DNA from: a virus
UHGV virus genome: UHGV-0046267
DNA: 26,300 bases
Reading direction: 5' to 3' (one strand)
The position numbers and the translations under genes were made by a program. Positions 5,045 through 26,300 of this stretch are shown piece after piece (the stretch's first letter is position 1; each line of letters begins with the position of its first letter). The notes beneath the pieces were generated by a model, which saw only the letters and a program-made list of their open reading frames with translations, was not told the origin of the DNA and did not search any database.

Positions 5045-7810
5045 ATGACGGCAGAGTACATCAGGGACTGGCAACAACCGCGCCACGCAGTGGGGCGTGA
5101 AGGAACGGGGATCCCCGCTCCTGAATCCGCGCTTTCCTCCTGGCTGGATGCCTACCGGGCAGAGAACGAGCGCCGCCAGGAAATGGCTGATGCGGCGTTC
5201 TCCGCCACGCCGCTGGGCAACCTGATTAATAAAAGCCTGGACGCACAGGAAAAACAGGACAAAACCATCACACTGGCAGGAGACGCCAGAAAACAGGCAC
5301 GCGGCGCGGTGGATGAAGCCATGGCCTCGCTGCGCCTGCTGCCGTCCTATCTGCGCGATCCGCTTATTCGCCACCTCTCCTTCCTGCGCAAAAAACAGGA
5401 AGCCGATCGCCGGAAAGGAAAAAAGAGCTGGCAGGCTGAACGCTACGCGTGCGGAACCCTGCGCAAAATATTCGAACGTCTGGACCGCACCGACCACCGC
5501 TGGCTGACACCGGGTTATCGCTCCCTTGCCGGACGCGAACGCCTGGACGATTTGCTTTACCTGCCGCAGCTCAACAAACACCAGATACAGACGCTGGCCA
5601 CCATGACGGCGGCGATGTTCAGCAGCACCTTCGAAAAACTCTGCGATGGCTTTGGCGCGACTGATGGCGAGCTGACCATGGATGTAACGCTGAAGGCGTA
5701 TCAGATGCTGGCCCGCATGGCGTTACACCTGCACGCCATGCCTCCGCATTATGACGTACTGACAACAGACAAAGACCGGAGGAACGAACCGGACACGGAG
5801 CTGCTGCCGGGCGCAATCCTTCGCCTGACCTGTGCGGAATGGTGGAAACGCAAACTGTGGCTGTTACGTTGCGAGTGGAGAGAAGAACAACTCCGCGCCG
5901 CCTGTCTGGTTTCCAGAAAAACATCACCCTATCTGAGCCAGGACGCGTTAAGCGAGTTTCGCGCACAGCGCGAGAAAACACGCGATTTCCTGAAAAGTTT
6001 CATGCTGGAAAACGAAGACGGGTTCACGATTGATCTCGAGACAGTGTATTACGCGGGAGTAAGTAACCCGGTTCACCGTAAGGCAGAAATGATGGCCACC
6101 ATGAAGGGGCTGGAACTTCTGGCCGAAGCCCGTGGCGACAAAGCGGTGTTTCTGACTGTCACCTGCCCGTCAAAATACCACGCCACAACAGAGAACGGTC
6201 ATCCGAATCCCAAATGGAACGGGGCCACCATGCGCGACTCCAGCGATTACCTGGTTAACACGTTTTTTGCAGCGGTCCGCAAGAAACTGAACCGCGATGG
6301 CCTGCGCTGGTATGGCATCCGCACGGTGGAGCCTCACCATGACGGCACCGTGCACTGGCATATGATGGTCTTTGCTCATCCGGAAGAAATCGACAGCATT
6401 GTGGCCATCACCCGCGATATTGCCATTCAGGAAGACCGCCACGAGCTGGGCGATGACATAACTCCGCGTTTTAAGGCGGAGTACGTAGACGGCTCAAAAG
6501 GCACACCAACCAGCTATATCGCGACCTACATCGGAAAAAACCTGGACAGCCGCGCCGTGGATGGCATCGACCCGAAAACGGGCAAGCCACGCGTTGACCA
6601 CGAAACCGGAAAATCAATGGCAGAGAGCGTGGAACGCGCCATCGGCTGGGCGCGCCTTCACCGGGTCCGCCAGTTCCAGTTCTTTGGTATCCCCTCCCGT
6701 CAGGTGTGGCGTGAACTGCGTCGCCTTGCCAGCCAGATGGCACGCAACCCGGAAGGCCCGCAACGGCTGAAGGATGACGCAATGGACTCGGTTCTTGCTG
6801 CCGCTGATGCCGGATGTTTTGCCACCTACATAGAGAAACAGGGCGGCGTACTTGTTCCACGCAAAGACTACCTGATTCGCACCGCCTACGACCTCGCAGA
6901 TGAGCTGAACGATTACGGCGAACAGAGCGTACAGATTTACGGGATCTGGTCACCACTCATCGGGGAATCCTCCCGTGTGTGCACGCACCCGGATAACTGG
7001 AAGCTGGTAAGACGTAAACCTGAAGCAGAAGACATCGCCCGCGAAAATGGTTTTGACCTTCAGGGCGGCCCTGCCGCCCCTTGGACTCGTGGCAATAACT
7101 GTCCCCGTGTACAGGAAACGGACAACAACGGGACAGAACAGCCGGAAGAACGGCCAGCACCGTGGCCGCAGCTCCCTGACGGCGTTGAAGTGAACGAATG
7201 GATGCGCTCACTGAAACGGCACGAACGCCGGGCGCTGATGCGTGCGCTTCGTGACAAACAGGCAAAAAACAGCAGTGATGAAATGCAGAGCTGGACACAG
7301 AGCCGCAAACAGCAGCGGCCTTTGCCTGATAACCACGAATTACTCGCTAAAGAATGGCGGGAGTCTGCTGAATCTCTCGGCCTGCATATCGGTGAACAAC
7401 AGATGCAGCACCTGTTACGGGGCGGCAGTCTGTACGTTGACGGCAGCATCATTGCACCGCAGAGATTTGAAATTGTACGCAAACCAGATACCCGACCGGA
7501 CAGCCGAATCACGCAGCTCTGGCAGCGCCTGAGCCGTAATCACGGCGTAAACAGCACGGAAATCCGCCATAACCCGGTTTCCAGCTATCTGAAACAGCTC
7601 GGGGCATCAGACCCAGAAGCCGCTGCACGCCTGGCATCCACAATTCAGCAGGACCAGAACACCATGAAAACTCCCGTTACCGTGCTTTCTGACATGCTGC
7701 GCGCCATCCGTGACGCAGAACACGCACAGAGAATCAATGAAACCACTGAACGCGCACGTCACAAGGCGAGTCTGTTGCAGGACAAAGGCAATAGCGAGAA
7801 GAAAAAATAA
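5045..7810 (+). CDS. Replication initiation endonuclease, P2 gpA family (rolling-circle HUH nickase).
   Basis: 921 aa. HUH-type motif VHWHMMVF and a tyrosine motif YIATYIGK are present. Position after the early operon matches P2 gene A. Confidence 0.9.
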   Translation: MTAEYIRDWQQPRHAVGREGTGIPAPESALSSWLDAYRAENERRQEMADAAFSATPLGNLINKSLDAQEKQDKTITLAGDARKQARGAVDEAMASLRLLPSYLRDPLIRHLSFLRKKQEADRRKGKKSWQAERYACGTLRKIFERLDRTDHRWLTPGYRSLAGRERLDDLLYLPQLNKHQIQTLATMTAAMFSSTFEKLCDGFGATDGELTMDVTLKAYQMLARMALHLHAMPPHYDVLTTDKDRRNEPDTELLPGAILRLTCAEWWKRKLWLLRCEWREEQLRAACLVSRKTSPYLSQDALSEFRAQREKTRDFLKSFMLENEDGFTIDLETVYYAGVSNPVHRKAEMMATMKGLELLAEARGDKAVFLTVTCPSKYHATTENGHPNPKWNGATMRDSSDYLVNTFFAAVRKKLNRDGLRWYGIRTVEPHHDGTVHWHMMVFAHPEEIDSIVAITRDIAIQEDRHELGDDITPRFKAEYVDGSKGTPTSYIATYIGKNLDSRAVDGIDPKTGKPRVDHETGKSMAESVERAIGWARLHRVRQFQFFGIPSRQVWRELRRLASQMARNPEGPQRLKDDAMDSVLAAADAGCFATYIEKQGGVLVPRKDYLIRTAYDLADELNDYGEQSVQIYGIWSPLIGESSRVCTHPDNWKLVRRKPEAEDIARENGFDLQGGPAAPWTRGNNCPRVQETDNNGTEQPEERPAPWPQLPDGVEVNEWMRSLKRHERRALMRALRDKQAKNSSDEMQSWTQSRKQQRPLPDNHELLAKEWRESAESLGLHIGEQQMQHLLRGGSLYVDGSIIAPQRFEIVRKPDTRPDSRITQLWQRLSRNHGVNSTEIRHNPVSSYLKQLGASDPEAAARLASTIQQDQNTMKTPVTVLSDMLRAIRDAEHAQRINETTERARHKASLLQDKGNSEKKK

Positions 7811-7990: not shown

Positions 7991-9112
7991 ATGGGCGACT
8001 TAGGTGGTATTCAGTCAGATTTAGCCCAACTAGTTAGACTGGTAATAGCTGAACAGTATGATGACGTTCGGTTATATGTCGCTCGCTTGGTGCGTAAATA
8101 TCGGGAAACTATGCCTGCTCTATCCGAGCAGCTTGATCTTTATCTACGAAATAAACCGCAAAAGCCTGCACAAAGCCTGCGTAAGGTTACCGCACCAAAA
8201 CAAGCGCTGCCTCAAACCATGCCTGTGGACGAGGAGTCAAGGCTTACCTTGCTTAAAGCACCAAATGAAAAGATTGTGAGCAAACCTCTACTGTCCAGTC
8301 AGATAGAAGACTCACTGGATCAAATTATTCTTGAGCGGAAGCACATCGATCGCCTCAAGGCTCTCGGCTTACAACCAACACGCTCTGCCATTTTTGTTGG
8401 CCCTCCGGGTGTAGGTAAAACACTTACGGCAAGCTGGTTAGCTCAGAAATTAGGGGTTCCTTTTTACGTTCTTGATTTAACGGCAGTAATGAGCAGCTAT
8501 CTGGGCAAAAGCGGAAATAACCTTCGGGCAGCTCTAGATTTTGCGAAGAAAGGGCCGTGCGTTCTTCTGTTAGATGAAATTGATTCAATCGCCAAAAAGA
8601 GAAGTGATGATTCTGATGTTGGAGAATTAAAAAGACTTGTTACCGTGATACTCCAGGAGGTTGACGAATGGCCGTCTTCTAGTTTGCTACTTGCTGCAAC
8701 TAACTTCGCTGAGTTGATTGATCCAGCACTATGGAGACGTTTTGATTTAGTGCTCAATTTTGAGAAGCCAGATAGCGAAAGTATTAAAGAAGCAATTAAA
8801 CGCTTTTCAGGTCCCGACTACGCGATTTTTGCACGTTGGATAGATCTACTGGCTATTATGTTCAAAAATGAATCTTTTAGTAATATTGAGCGTTCTATCA
8901 ACAAATTCCGACGTTCGGTCGCTTTAGGTATTTCCTCAGATGAAGAGTTGATTGGGTCGTTCATTAAAGATGGTTTATCAGAATTAGACAGGAATGAACG
9001 TAAAGAAATTGCAGTTACTCTAAAAAGAAATTCTAAATTATCCCAGCATGCCATATCAGACTTAACCGGAGTCAGTAGGGATACAATTAGAAAATACAGT
9101 CAAAAAATGTAA
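7991..9112 (+). CDS. AAA+ ATPase, first gene of the accessory cassette (IetA-like by architecture).
   Basis: 373 aa. Walker A GPPGVGKT and Walker B VLLLDEID present. AAGAGG RBS upstream. AT-rich relative to the phage backbone. C-terminus has an HTH-like stretch (LSQHAISDLTGVSRDTIRKY). Confidence 0.8.
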   Translation: MGDLGGIQSDLAQLVRLVIAEQYDDVRLYVARLVRKYRETMPALSEQLDLYLRNKPQKPAQSLRKVTAPKQALPQTMPVDEESRLTLLKAPNEKIVSKPLLSSQIEDSLDQIILERKHIDRLKALGLQPTRSAIFVGPPGVGKTLTASWLAQKLGVPFYVLDLTAVMSSYLGKSGNNLRAALDFAKKGPCVLLLDEIDSIAKKRSDDSDVGELKRLVTVILQEVDEWPSSSLLLAATNFAELIDPALWRRFDLVLNFEKPDSESIKEAIKRFSGPDYAIFARWIDLLAIMFKNESFSNIERSINKFRRSVALGISSDEELIGSFIKDGLSELDRNERKEIAVTLKRNSKLSQHAISDLTGVSRDTIRKYSQKM

Positions 9113-9135: not shown

Positions 9136-11361
9136 ATGGCGAAAACTAATTTTCTGATTGGACGCGGCGAATTATTAACCAGCGATATTCCTGGTCCTAA
9201 AAGAGTGCCCGGAAAAGCTGAGGTTTATTCTCTTTACGAATCGAAACAACGTTTATTGCCGCAAATTGCATCTACTATAGAAAATTTTGATGATTTACCC
9301 AGTCAGGCATGTCCTTATGATTATGCTGTGGCTAAGTTGACGTTGAATCCGAGCTATATTGCACGCTCTTTTTTTCCTGCAAAAATGCTTAAGTCTACCG
9401 GGTTAACGTCTATTGGCAGCAGGACGGTAAAAATTACGCCTCAAAGCTGGAAGCGAAAAGTTACTGTGTCAGAAGTAACTACGACACAAATGTTTGTTGC
9501 TGGTAAAAGAGAATCCTTCAAAGAGTTACCTCATTGGGTGTCAGGACTCAAAGAGTTTTCTGACGAAGCGATTGATTTTGCACGCATAGAACGGTTCGAT
9601 GCCTATTTACCCGAAGAGCGTATTATTACCATTGGTGAGCAGGATTCTTCGTATTTTGAGGTTGGTGTTCATTTACTGCCAGATAATGAACAAGACTTGG
9701 TTCAGCAACAATTTGTTCAGTTTGCATCAAATTTGAACATCAAAGTACATACTTCATTAGCTTTTACCGCTGGTACATTATGGTTCGTGCCAATCCAGGC
9801 CGATAGAATTACTATTAGTAAGCTTGCGAAATTTACATTTGTACGAGTAATAAGACCGGTTCCAAGATTGCGTGGGATTAGACCAATACAAAGGAACTAC
9901 GGTCCTTTAGCTCAGTGTAAATTGCCTGCTGAGGGCCCCGTATCTTCAGAAATAAAAGTTGCGATTCTTGATGGTGGTTTACCATCAGAGCACGCTATAT
10001 CGCCATGGTTAAAATCCTATAGAGTTTTGGACGATCATGCAGAGGATGATCCAGACGGTTTAGAGCATGGTTTAGCTGTGTCTTCAGCCTTTTTATTTGG
10101 ACCAATAAGTAATAAATCGGAAGCGAAAAGACCATACTCTTATATTGATAACTTAAGAGTTTTGGACAACAAGACCTGCCAAGAAGATCCGCTGGAACTA
10201 TATCGAACTTTGGGCTTTATTGAAGAGGTATTGTTGTCTCGCCAGTATCAGTTTATCAATCTAAGTTTAGGTCCAGACCTACCAATTGAAGATACGGAAG
10301 TTCATGCATGGACTTCCGTTATTGATGATTTGTTAAGTGATGGTGAAACATTAATGACTGTTGCTGTTGGCAACAATGGAGAAATGGATCGCAAGTCTGG
10401 TAATGCAAGAATTCAAGTACCAGCCGATTGCGTTAATGCTCTTGCTGTTGGTGCTTGTGATACAGTTAATGATACGGAATGGAAACGAGCACCATATAGC
10501 GCCATTGGGCCAGGCAGAAGTCCTGGCGTGATGAAACCGGATTTAGTTGCGTTTGGTGGTGACACAGACGAGTACTTTCATGTTTTAGGTAAAGGTAAGA
10601 AGCCTGTAATCATACCCCAGCTAGGAACAAGCTTTGCCTCTCCTTACGCCTTACGAGCAGCTGTTGGTGTTCGGGCAATTTTAGGGAACGATTTGAGCCT
10701 ACTAGCAATCAAAGCTTTGTTAATTCATGCGTCAAAACAGCTTGATCATCCTTGTACAGAAGTTGGCTGGGGAAAACTGCCTGAAGACTTGAACGACATT
10801 ATAGTCAGCCCTGATGGTGTTGCCCGTATCGTCTACCAAGGTGAATTGAAACCAGGAAAATACTTACGCGCTTCTCTTCCAATACCTGAAGGTGGCTTGA
10901 AAGGTAGAATAAACTTAGCGGCAACTTTCTGTTATGCAACAACCACTGATCCACAAGACCCAGCTTCCTATACAAAAGCTGGTTTGGAAGTGACATTCCG
11001 GCCAAATGATTCAAAAATCAAAGACGGAAAACAAAATGCTGAAACCAAGGGATTCTTTGAACTGGCCAAATATTCAACTGAAAGTGAGCGACGTTCTGAC
11101 ATGGGCAAATGGGAGACCGTCTTACATAATTCGAAGAACATGCTAGGTTCAACTCTAAAAAATCCTGTATTTGACATTCATTATAACGCTCGTGAGGCCG
11201 GTGCAAGCATAGCCAGCCATAAGGCAGAAAAAATCAAGTATGCTCTTATAATTACCATTAAGGCATCAAAGCACCAAGACCTGTATAACGAAATTTTACG
11301 TACTTATAATCAGGTGCTCGTGCCAATTCAACCGCAAACATCAATTCCTATTCGTTCGTAA
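9136..11361 (+). CDS. Subtilisin-like serine peptidase, S8 family, second gene of the cassette (IetS-like by architecture).
   Basis: 741 aa, 23 bp downstream of the ATPase with an AAGGAG RBS. Catalytic triad motifs in canonical order: Asp (VAILDGG), His (HGLAVSS), Ser (GTSFASP). Extra N- and C-terminal regions of unknown function. Confidence 0.85.
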   Translation: MAKTNFLIGRGELLTSDIPGPKRVPGKAEVYSLYESKQRLLPQIASTIENFDDLPSQACPYDYAVAKLTLNPSYIARSFFPAKMLKSTGLTSIGSRTVKITPQSWKRKVTVSEVTTTQMFVAGKRESFKELPHWVSGLKEFSDEAIDFARIERFDAYLPEERIITIGEQDSSYFEVGVHLLPDNEQDLVQQQFVQFASNLNIKVHTSLAFTAGTLWFVPIQADRITISKLAKFTFVRVIRPVPRLRGIRPIQRNYGPLAQCKLPAEGPVSSEIKVAILDGGLPSEHAISPWLKSYRVLDDHAEDDPDGLEHGLAVSSAFLFGPISNKSEAKRPYSYIDNLRVLDNKTCQEDPLELYRTLGFIEEVLLSRQYQFINLSLGPDLPIEDTEVHAWTSVIDDLLSDGETLMTVAVGNNGEMDRKSGNARIQVPADCVNALAVGACDTVNDTEWKRAPYSAIGPGRSPGVMKPDLVAFGGDTDEYFHVLGKGKKPVIIPQLGTSFASPYALRAAVGVRAILGNDLSLLAIKALLIHASKQLDHPCTEVGWGKLPEDLNDIIVSPDGVARIVYQGELKPGKYLRASLPIPEGGLKGRINLAATFCYATTTDPQDPASYTKAGLEVTFRPNDSKIKDGKQNAETKGFFELAKYSTESERRSDMGKWETVLHNSKNMLGSTLKNPVFDIHYNAREAGASIASHKAEKIKYALIITIKASKHQDLYNEILRTYNQVLVPIQPQTSIPIRS

Positions 11362-11823: not shown

Positions 11824-11918
11824 NNNNNNNNNNNNNNNNNNNNNNNNNNNNNNNNNNNNNNNNNNNNNNNNNNNNNNNNNNNNNNNNNNNNNNNNNNNNN
11901 NNNNNNNNNNNNNNNNNN
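11824..11918. other. Assembly gap (95 N).
   Basis: N-run flanked on both sides by the same AAATTTTTT string and by a G homopolymer. Confidence 0.9.
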
Positions 11919-16857: not shown

Positions 16858-16915
16858 NNNNNNNNNNNNNNNNNNNNNNNNNNNNNNNNNNNNNNNNNNN
16901 NNNNNNNNNNNNNNN
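16858..16915. other. Assembly gap (58 N) with probable artefactual homopolymer sequence on its right flank.
   Basis: CCGCCTG is present on both sides of the N-run; CACCCCGGGGGGGGCACCCCCCCC follows the gap. Confidence 0.85.
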
Positions 16916-23258: not shown

Positions 23259-25008
23259 ATGAGTACCACAACACGAAAATTTAAAACCGTTATCACCGAT
23301 ACGGGTGCAAAAAAATTAGCGCAGGCAGCCGCGCCAGATGGTAAGCCTGTCCGCCTGACTCATATGGCCGTGGGCGACGGTGGCGGTACATTGCCCACAC
23401 CTGACAGTAAGCAGACCCGTCTGGTGCATGAGGTGTGGCGACACACTGTTAATCGCGTCATCCTGGACGCAACACATCAGAACCGCATTATTGCAGAGCT
23501 GGTTATTCCTCCAGAAACGGGCGGATTCTGGATCCGGGAAATTGGTGTATTTGATGAGCACGGCGATTTAATCGCGGTGGGCAATACTGCCGAAAGTTAC
23601 AAGCCAGCCGTTGCCGAAGGGTCCGGTCGTGCACAAACATTTCGCACCATTCTGACCGTATCCAGCACTGCCACCGTGGCGCTTACCGTGGATAACACCA
23701 TGGTGATGGCCACAGTGGATTACGTGGATGACAAACTGAAAGAGCATGAACAGTCACGACGTCACCCGGACGCCTCGCTGACCGCAAAAGGCTTTGTCCA
23801 GCTCAGTAGCGCCACCAACAGCACGTCTGAAACATTGGCCGCGACATCGAAAGCGGTTAAGGCGGTAATGGATGAAACAAATAAGAAAGCCCCATTAAAC
23901 AGCCCGGCGCTGACCGGAACGCCAACAACACCAACTGCGCGACAGGGAACGAATAATACCCAAATCGCAAGCACGGCTTTCGTTATGGCTGCGATTGCCG
24001 CCCTTGTAGATTCGTCACCTGATGCACTGAACACGCTGAACGAGCTGGCTGCGGCGTTGGGCAACGACCCGAATTTTGCGACCACCATGACTAACGCGCT
24101 TGCGGGTAAGCAACCGAAAGATGCCACCCTGACGGCGCTGGCCGGGCTTGCTACTGCGGCAGACAGGTTTCCGNNNNNNNNNNNNNNNNNNCAGGTTTCC
24201 GTATTTTACGGGGAATGATGTCGCCAGCCTGGCAACTCTGACAAAAGTCGGGCGGGATATTCTTGCGAAATCGACCGTTGCCGCCGTTATCGAATACCTC
24301 GGTTTACGAGAACTCGGCACAAGCGGGGAGAAAATACCGTTACTCAGTACAGCGAATACCTGGACCAATCGACAAACATTCAGCGGTGGCCTTTCTGGGG
24401 AACTGTCCGGCAATGCCGCTACTGCAACAAAGCTGAAAACAGCACGAAAAATTGCTGGAGTTGGTTTTGATGGTTCTAGCGATATTTCAATTAGTGCCAA
24501 AAATGTCAATGCATTTGCACTCCGACAAACAGGTAATACTGTTAATGGTGATACATCCGTTGGATGGAATTGGGATAGTGGTGCATATAACGCCCTGATT
24601 GGTGGTGCATCTGCATTAATTCTTCACTTTAATATAAATGCTGGTAGCTGTCCTGCCGTACAATTCCGTGTGAATTATAAAAATGGTGGCATTTCCTACA
24701 GGTCGGCTCGTGATGGTTATGGGTTTGAATTAGGTTGGTCAGATTTCTATACCACGACACGAAAACCTTCAGCGGGAGATGTTGGTGCATATACGCGGGC
24801 AGAATGTAACTCAAGGTTTATTACAGGTATTCGCCTTGGCGGTCTGTCATCTGTTCAGACATGGAATGGTCCCGGCTGGTCTGACAGGTCAGGTTATGTC
24901 GTTACGGGTTCAGTTAACGGAAACCGTGATGAATTAATTGATACAACACAGGCAAGGCCAATTCAGTATTGCATTAATGGGACGTGGTATAACGCGGGGA
25001 GTATTTAA
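23259..25008 (+). CDS. Tail fibre protein (gpH-like), interrupted by an assembly gap. Conserved N-terminal part followed by a divergent, AT-richer C-terminal receptor-binding part.
   Basis: Two track ORFs (23259-24218 and 24148-25008) join across the N-run if the flanking duplicate is collapsed (…AADRFPYFTGND…). C-terminus ends INGTWYNAGSI. Confidence 0.8.
24174..24191. other. Assembly gap (18 N) inside the tail fibre gene.
   Basis: CAGGTTTCCG is duplicated on both sides of the N-run; removing one copy restores the reading frame. Confidence 0.85.
24287..24312. other. Candidate DNA-invertase crossover site (gix/cix/pix-like) inside the tail fibre gene.
   Basis: TTATCGAATACCTCGGTTTACGAGAA matches the Mu gix sequence as I recall it (TTATCCAAAACCTCGGTTTACAGGAA) at about 21 of 26 positions. 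It sits at the boundary between the conserved and variable parts of the fibre. Confidence 0.5.
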
Positions 25009-25010
25009 CG

Positions 25011-25544
25011 ATGATGCACTTAAAAAACATTACTGCTGGCAACCCTAAAACAAAAGAGCAATACCAGCTAACAAAGCAATTTAACATCAAATGGCTTTAT
25101 TCAGATGATGGAAAAAACTGGTATGAGGAACAAAAGAATTTCCAGCCAGACACTTTGAAAATGGTCTATGACCATAACGGCGTTATTATTTGTATTGAAA
25201 AGGATGTTTCAGCAATTAATCCGGAAGGCGCAAGCGTCGTTGAATTACCTGATATTACAGCAAATCGCCGGGCTGATATTTCGGGGAAATGGTTGTTCAA
25301 AGATGGCGTAGTGATAAAGCGAACTTATACCGAGGAAGAGCAGAGGCAACAAGCGGAAAATGAAAAGCAAAGCCTGTTGCAACTTGTCAGGGATAAAACC
25401 CAGCTATGGGACTCACAGCTACGGCTGGGCATCATTTCCGACGAGAATAAACAAAAATTAACCGAGTGGATGCTCTATGCGCAGAAAGTCGAATCTACAG
25501 ACACCTCCAGCCTGCCAGTAACGTTTCCCGAACAACCAGAATGA
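25011..25544 (+). CDS. Tail fibre assembly protein (Tfa / gpG-like).
   Basis: 177 aa immediately after the fibre gene; conserved N-terminus [20 protein letters not shown] and DITANRRAD core typical of the Tfa family. Confidence 0.8.
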   Translation: MMHLKNITAGNPKTKEQYQLTKQFNIKWLYSDDGKNWYEEQKNFQPDTLKMVYDHNGVIICIEKDVSAINPEGASVVELPDITANRRADISGKWLFKDGVVIKRTYTEEEQRQQAENEKQSLLQLVRDKTQLWDSQLRLGIISDENKQKLTEWMLYAQKVESTDTSSLPVTFPEQPE

Positions 25545-25545
25545 G

Positions 25546-25572
25546 AGAAGGCCCGATATTGGGCCTTAATTT
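25546..25572 (+). terminator. Hairpin terminator between the two convergent tail fibre assembly genes.
   Basis: Stem AAGGCCC / GGGCCTT with loop GATATT, followed by AATTTTTA. Confidence 0.55.
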
Positions 25573-26100
25573 TTACTCAGGCTTTTGTGGCCATTCGGGA
25601 TTTGCTGTATCCACACGGCTGACCAGAACGCTGTAGCGTTCCCATAACTCCAGTCGTGTGCGTTCCTCATCCGTCGCCATATTCAGCCTGACAGCGCGTT
25701 CCAGTGGCTGAATAACGCTTTCAGCTTCAGAAAGCAACGCGACCTTTTGTGATTCGGCCTGTTGTTGCTGTTCGTCTGCTGTATAAATCCGCTTAACCAC
25801 AGTTCCGTCCTTAAACATCCACTTCCCTGAATCATCGGCACGACGATTGGCTGTTATATCTGGAATCTCAACGACACTAAAGCCTTCGGGATTAAGCGTT
25901 GAGGCATCTTTGGTTATGGCAACAATAATATTATTTTCGTCGTATACAATCTTTATGGTGTCGTCCTGAAAGTTATTTACTTCCTCATACCAGTTTTTAC
26001 CGTCTTCGGACCATAACCAGATAACATCAAAATTCTTTGTTAGCTGATATTGTTCTTTTGTTTTTGGATTTCCGGACTTAATATTTTTTAAATGCTGCAT
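25573..26100 (-). CDS. Second tail fibre assembly protein, inverted orientation.
   Basis: 175 aa; shares the N-terminal [20 protein letters not shown] and DITANRRAD blocks with the plus-strand copy but has a different C-terminus. Confidence 0.8.
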
Positions 26101-26103
26101 AAT

Positions 26104-26300
26104 TTACACCTGTGCGACGTTATACCATGTGCCATTGATGTATTTTTGTATTGGTCTGAAGATGGCTTCATCATCGCCATCTACTTCACCAATGATTCTT
26201 AATCCGGTAATTGCGTGTCCGGCTTTTTCATAACGACCACCACGCGCCATCAATTGAACAACACGCGTACCCAGGCGAACATCTTTTACATAGCGTGAAT
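26104..26300 (-). CDS. Alternative tail fibre C-terminal segment, inverted orientation, partial (continues past the window end).
   Basis: Hand translation of the minus strand is open to the window edge and ends ...PIQKYINGTWYNVAQV-stop, parallel to the plus-strand fibre ending ...QYCINGTWYNAGSI. Confidence 0.6.
   Translation of the reverse strand, partial: SRYVKDVRLGTRVVQLMARGGRYEKAGHAITGLRIIGEVDGDDEAIFRPIQKYINGTWYNVAQV

Follow-up and report, generated by a model that had tools for sequence, protein, structure and literature searches.

The right end of UHGV virus genome UHGV-0046267, a viral DNA stretch of 26,300 nucleotides (nt) (hereafter the window, with all positions counted from its first nucleotide), carries a tail-fibre gene, H, and a group of neighbouring genes that we identify with high confidence as the left-hand portion of an invertible tail-fibre segment of the Gin/Cin/Pin type (Din family), carried by a P88-like, P2-family prophage of Escherichia coli. 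The window covers the left two-thirds of this 2.7-kb segment. Gene H (23259–25008, plus strand) is of the P2 type and is made up of a constant part, Sc (23259–24298, plus strand), which runs to the centre of a crossover site, and a variable fibre tip, Sv (24299–25008, plus strand), which is of the Mu S'/P1 S' type, ends in INGTWYNAGSI, has a weak match to Pfam gp37_C and, being fused to H, is the tip that is expressed. Directly downstream is the assembly gene U (25011–25544, plus strand; Pfam Caudo_TAP, 1e-36), which is of the Mu U' type and cognate to the expressed tip. The second assembly gene, U' (25573–26100, minus strand; Caudo_TAP, 3e-36), is silent and inverted and is of the Mu U/P2 G type. 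It is followed by the 3' end of a silent alternative tip, Sv' (26104–26300 and on beyond the window end, minus strand), which is of the P2 H tip type, ends in INGTWYNVAQV and is cut by the window end. A G+C-rich hairpin lies between the two convergent assembly genes at 25548–25567, with an 8-bp stem that includes 5 GC pairs and is followed by AATTTTT on the plus strand; judged by a consensus match only, this hairpin is a probable terminator at the end of the expressed cassette as oriented in the window, and terminators are annotated in the D108 record within its matched segment.

This layout is the one proposed in a first-pass annotation of the window, which was made from the letters alone and described a fibre gene and its assembly gene on the plus strand followed by an inverted second assembly gene and an inverted tip; the Caudo_TAP matches to both assembly genes support that description. 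The same annotation noted that both tips end with the motif INGTWYN, which is indeed the case: H ends in ...QYCINGTWYNAGSI and the inverted tip in ...KYINGTWYNVAQV (ends that also read as ...CINGTWYNAGSI for H and ...YINGTWYNVAQV for the inverted tip). In the open reading frame listing, H is split in two (23259–24218 and 24148–25008), because of an assembly artefact in which a run of 18 N (24174–24191) together with a duplicated CAGGTTTCCG forms a spurious 28-bp insertion (24174–24201) within the constant part. This insertion, the 18 N plus the second copy of CAGGTTTCCG, is absent from relatives. Once it is removed, H is an intact gene of 573 amino acids (aa) that is colinear with P2 H, and the window end is 100.000% identical to two public contigs, our loci L026 and L029, over 4,052 nt.

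The left 26-bp crossover site lies at 24287–24312 on the plus strand, inside H, and reads TTATCGAATACC-TC-GGTTTACGAGAA, with its central dinucleotide at 24299–24300. We found that this 26-mer (TTATCGAATACCTCGGTTTACGAGAA), which codes for ...AAVIEYLGLRE..., matches the gix sequence present at both annotated boundaries of the Mu G segment (TTATCCAAAACCTCGGTTTACAGGAA) at 22 of 26 positions, and matches cixR of the annotated P1 record (TTATCCAATACCTTGGTTTAAGAGAA) at 23 of 26. In the P1 record, the homologous site is annotated with its crossover falling between the two central bases. The prefix common to both fibre forms is 384 aa long and ends in ...EYLGL. Thus, two further claims of the first-pass annotation, that 24287–24312 resembles a gix-type site and that it sits at the boundary between the conserved and the variable parts of the fibre, are both correct. 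By our own arithmetic, a 26-mer with at most 4 mismatches is expected about 1.5e-5 times in 2 × 26.3 kb (52.6 kb), and the core AANACCTCGGTTTAC occurs once in the window compared to 0.08 occurrences expected. Searches of the window with the gix and core patterns found no second gix-like site, and a search of the window with Mu gix at ≤3 mismatches gave no match, the left site having 4 mismatches. Similarly, we found no further gix-like sites of the kind expected of a multi-cassette shufflon, at ≤8 mismatches, in the window or in the D-to-FI region of a relative.

Taken alone, the window shows one site and no recombinase, which is what would be seen if it held a static inverted duplication, in which two convergent fibre/assembly pairs undergo no rearrangement and the gix-like sequence is a coincidence. 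We give this explanation next to no credence. The chance expectation of ~1e-5 argues against a coincidental gix-like sequence, the inverted tip lacks its own N-terminal part and becomes joined in frame to H on inversion, and both orientations occur in otherwise identical DNA, as described below, so that a static arrangement is already refuted for the lineage.

The invertible segment that we favour has, as the first-pass annotation stated, the organisation of the Mu G and P1 C segments, and this resemblance extends to DNA homology, with 90–92% identity to Mu, D108, P1 and P7 over 1.6–1.7 kb. The expressed cassette belongs to the Mu G(-) type: over its last 165 aa, the tip shares 88% identity with both Mu S' and P1 S', and U shares 97% with Mu U' and 95% with P1 U'. 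The full silent-type tip, as found in the relative L001, is 98% identical to residues 384–669 of P2 H, and U' shows 96–97% identity to Mu U and P1 U and 92% to P2 G. Among solved structures, U' matches Mu U (PDB 5YVQ chain B, 2e-110). The reading frame of the inverted tip is open as far as the partner site, and it is through this frame that the tip joins H after inversion. From this homology, we infer that receptor or host specificity may differ between the two orientations.

The partner site and the invertase gene had been placed just beyond the window by the first-pass annotation. The window derives from scaffold GG771966.1 of assembly GCA_000164255.1 (our locus L030, identical over 4,228 nt, N run included), which ends 508 nt past the window end, at window-equivalent 26808, inside the silent tip. 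An exact 53-mer from the window end had no match in genome contigs and was found in 14 loci in IMG/VR. The repaired window end plus the scaffold extension has 0 mismatches over the 4,052 nt compared with L026 and L029, and these sequence-identical contigs allowed us to look downstream of 26300, where both predicted elements are present. L026 contains an inverted copy of the site, TTATTTAAAACCTCGGTTTACAGGAA, at window-equivalent 26965–26990, and a serine recombinase gene encoding 199 aa at 1957–2556 on its minus strand, window-equivalent 27045–27644; L029 reaches the partner site only. Similarly, in the nearest E. coli prophages, an inverted partner, TTATTTAAAACC-TC-GGTTTACAGGAA, lies 2,652 nt away and is followed by a 199-aa recombinase, and the same arrangement is found in the complete E. 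coli genomes YC21-F17, SE11 and 33F4. Of the loci with the identical U' protein, all that are long enough (L025–L028 and L032) have both an intact 199-aa invertase and the partner site. Both sites, the left one seen in the window and the partner in relatives only, consist of two 12-bp half-sites on either side of a 2-bp centre and have in common the centre TC and the core AACCTCGGTTTAC, and the partner site matches Mu gix at 24 of 26 positions.

The 199-aa recombinase of the relatives (L001, L002, L021 and L026) has the Pfam domains Resolvase and HTH_7, is 80% identical to Gin and 72% identical to Cin with conservation of the catalytic Ser9, and among solved structures matches best those of Gin, 3UJ3 and 4M6F, at 1e-99 to 3e-100. 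Din systems use a Fis-dependent enhancer that acts in cis and that, in Mu, P1 and Salmonella, is embedded in the 5' end of the gene for the invertase. Over its first ~108 nt, the invertase gene of the relatives has the same sequence as the 5' end of Mu gin, and this stretch aligns with the annotated inversion enhancer of P1 cin; from this sequence conservation, we infer that the window-type switch may depend on such an enhancer and on Fis.

Both orientations of the segment occur among the loci that we fetched, with 10 loci (the window included) in orientation A and 6 in the flipped orientation B. When L001 was inverted in silico between the site centres, H came into frame with the other tip to give a protein of 672 aa, compared to 617 aa in the A form, and the inverted sequence was colinear with the natural locus L015, with 99.0% identity over 4.6 kb. 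The 12.5-kb loci of E. coli 33F4 and 33E, which come from the same Swiss farm, differ by 1,968 mismatches as deposited, but after in silico inversion of a 2,680-bp segment there are 0 differences over the entire 12.5 kb. Similarly, L028 is the flipped form of the window sequence type and has no mismatches in either the segment or 2,226 nt of the invertase flank. Of 5,426 complete E. coli genomes, 297 have the A-type junction and 358 have the B-type junction. Inversions have been demonstrated by sequencing and polymerase chain reaction (PCR) in P2-like prophages of enteropathogenic E. coli (EPEC) E2348/69 (Goldberg et al. 2014, PMC4272514), and for a P88-like prophage of E. coli ST131, PCR has confirmed an inversion between GpH and a Mu S-like fibre protein (bioRxiv 10.1101/2022.05.07.487787); the P88 genome paper (PMC5285337) makes no mention of inversion.

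The sequences of the sites in the two orientations locate the exchange. In orientation A, the left site reads ...ACC-TC-GGTTTACGAGAA and the right site ...ACC-TC-GGTTTACAGGAA; in all 6 B loci, the inner half-sites (CGAGAA versus CAGGAA) are exchanged together with the cassettes, and the outer half-sites are unchanged. Therefore, strand exchange occurred within 24296–24306, consistent with exchange at the central TC. This result bears on the possibility that the segment flips by RecA-dependent homologous recombination between inverted repeats and not by site-specific recombination. Inverted repeats are present, with 30 nt of 80% complementarity at the segment ends and 40 nt of 78% complementarity in the INGTWYN-coding tips, but at the junctions perfect identity is confined to the 13-bp core AACCTCGGTTTAC, and 13 bp is too short for efficient RecA recombination. 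All of the flipped loci exchanged exactly within this core, and none did so at the longer 40-nt repeat. Moreover, a Gin-like invertase with a putative enhancer region adjoins the segment. We consider a RecA-dependent origin of the flips extremely improbable.

Site-specific inversion in the lineage does not in itself settle the state of the switch in the source strain, in which the invertase or the partner site might be lost or inactive, leaving the fibre locked in the Mu S'-type orientation. The evidence for inversion comes from relatives of the source strain, and some of our observations speak against a working switch in the strain itself. The window has neither a partner site nor an invertase, and 157 nt separate the end of its source scaffold from the predicted position of the partner site. 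The 100%-identical contigs, which serve as proxies, carry an invertase allele that differs from the common allele WP_000905061.1 by two Arg-to-Cys changes, R51C and R88C. In addition, canonical P2, which retains a relic site in H but has no invertase, looks like an example of a frozen derivative. On the other hand, all of the long-enough loci with the identical U' retain both invertase and partner site, and neither position 51 nor position 88 is conserved across the family, with position 51 being Met in Cin. Position 88 is His in Hin. Furthermore, the R51C/R88C allele occurs with both orientations of the segment at 0 mismatches (L026 versus L028), which argues for recent activity of this allele. 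Thus, we consider a frozen switch in the source strain very unlikely; based on sequence-identical relatives in both orientations, the window's own strain very likely has the partner site and an active invertase.

In the mechanism that we propose for the invertible segment, the serine invertase encoded just to the right of the segment would bind two inverted 26-bp sites, one at 24287–24312 inside H and the other ~2.68 kb downstream, beyond the window, and strand exchange at the central TC would flip the 2,680-bp segment between them. In the orientation of the window, the 5' constant part of H would be read in frame with the Mu S'-type tip, followed by the cognate U, and the P2-H-type tip and U' would be antisense and silent; after inversion, H would be in frame with the P2-type tip, followed by U'. 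A population of lysogens would be expected to yield virions with either of two receptor specificities. The production by one prophage of particles with either of two receptor-binding tips would amount to bet-hedging and would widen the host range. The switch would also account for the description of the silent cassette by annotation pipelines as a 'hypothetical' or 'partial' fibre gene, and for the tendency of draft assemblies to break at this locus.

We noted several features of assemblies at this locus. Two Logan contigs that were assembled independently, L033 (SRR22418158) and L034 (SRR6068296), are 2,704 nt each, consist of the invertible segment alone and terminate within the ACCTCGG core of one crossover site each. 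An assembly graph yields such contigs if both orientations are present in the reads, and these ends are suggestive of mixed orientations, but repeats common to other prophages could give the same result. Mixed orientations in the sequenced culture were also considered as a cause of the break in the contig at 24174 and of the end of the scaffold at window-equivalent 26808. These breaks are not decisive, because fibre and invertase regions are repeated among prophages and this alone is able to break assemblies; there are five breaks in ~27 kb. The N runs at 11824–11918, 16858–16915 and 24174–24191, and the one in L030 at window-equivalent ~26373–26389, are spurious scaffold joins at which no sequence is missing. 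In relatives, the flanks of the first run are 3 nt apart, those of the second overlap by 20 nt, and those of the others overlap by 10–12 nt. The bases beside the first two runs are degraded homopolymers, and the third run is the one that falsely frameshifts H. A different arrangement is seen in L031 (GCA_900490275.1), which has two B-type left sites in direct orientation, at 190–215 and 757–782, together with extra assembly-gene copies and fragments; this sequence is suggestive of a shufflon-like variant with multiple cassettes, as has been reported for an EPEC P2-like prophage.

The constant shaft of the fibre contains a 132-nt (44-aa) repeat, ...KGxVQLSSATNSxSETxAAT..., at ~23780–23920 of the window. 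The window has one copy (H of 573 aa), compared to two in YC21-F17 (617 aa) and three in SE11 (661 aa); the repeats are at 6525–6790 in L001 and at 6525–6920 in L002.

Comparison with phage P2 bears on the origin of the switch. From end to end, P2 H and the flipped (B) form of the fibre are 89% identical; the identity is 98% between the P2 H tip and the silent Sv', and 92% between P2 G and U'. The correspondence of P2 H and G with the B form holds base for base as far as the G stop codon; homology between P2 and the window-type sequence stops at the end of G, and fun(Z) is next in P2. P2 H also has a relic of the crossover site, TTATCGAATATCTCGGTTTACAGGAA (L024, 1858–1883), which matches the B-form left site at 25 of 26 positions, with one synonymous change, and matches Mu gix at 23 of 26. 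The first-pass annotation was right that canonical P2 has no such switch, since P2 has no second cassette, partner site or invertase; we looked downstream of P2 G for remnants of a second cassette or an invertase and found none. Its proposal that a host-range module had been grafted onto a P2-like tail holds only in part. The Mu S'/U'-type cassette and the invertase are indeed additional relative to P2, but the silent cassette (Sv' and U') is essentially P2's own H tip and G, and the relic site is present in P2 H. From these correspondences, P2 looks like one frozen state of the switch. We suggest tentatively, rating it at somewhat less than an even chance, that canonical P2 is a frozen derivative whose ancestor lost the second cassette and the invertase. 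If this is true, the switch would be ancestral in the P2 family and not grafted onto P2.

A second difference from P2 lies to the right of the switch. In the P88-like prophages (L001, 10519–15146; L019; L020), the FI-FII-E-E'-T-U tail operon is inverted compared to that of P2 (L024, 5653–10792), in which FI-U has the opposite orientation relative to H. The inverted 5.6-kb FI-U operon directly abuts the invertase gene, and D and ogr keep their P2 orientation. More tentatively still, the invertase might once have flipped this operon at a pseudo-site, leaving its present orientation as a fossil of that event; a search at ≤8 mismatches for a gix-like relic at the far end of the operon (the FI/D junction) found none.

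With respect to genomic context, the window is the left 26 kb, from integrase to fibre, of a P88-like (Xuanwuvirus, Peduoviridae) prophage. It also encodes an anti-phage defence pair, IetA (AAA ATPase, 9e-78; 7991–9112, plus strand) and IetS (S8 peptidase, 3e-51; 9136–11361, plus strand), which occupies the P2 cargo hotspot, flanked by the replication and portal genes.

A switch of this type is already known from P88-like (Xuanwuvirus) prophages, from the Mu G segment and from the P1 C segment, and nothing here alters existing knowledge of Din-family inversion systems. The practical value of the analysis is correct annotation of the locus: H is intact and its apparent frameshift arose in scaffolding; the expressed tip belongs to the Mu S' type, and the silent tip is P2's own. 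Among the closest systems are the P88-like prophages (such as Escherichia phage P88, P88_4B11 and Citrobacter phage phiSM), which have the same genome type and gene order and have the FI-U tail operon downstream in the same orientation. Xuanwuvirus P884B11 is 99.6% identical to the segment over 2,018 nt, and a 'DNA invertase' is annotated beside the segment. The members of this group differ in their cargo genes, and P88_4B11, unlike the window, was deposited in the flipped (B) orientation. Mu has the same Sc/Sv-U/U'-Sv' architecture, but its segment is ~3 kb compared to 2.68 kb here, the constant part in the window is that of P2 H and not of Mu S, and the second tip is P2-H-like, with 46% overall identity to Mu S; moreover, Mu is a transposable phage, whereas the segment here resides in a P2-like phage. 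The P1 and P7 C segment with Cin/cix and the e14 P segment with Pin share the same mechanism and homologous cassettes, although cix has the centre TT where gix and the sites here have TC, and the P1 C segment spans 4.2 kb, its variable parts being longer. Compared with all of these, the system at the end of the window is a textbook Din-family segment, and it is found in a prophage group in which such segments have been annotated and shown to invert.

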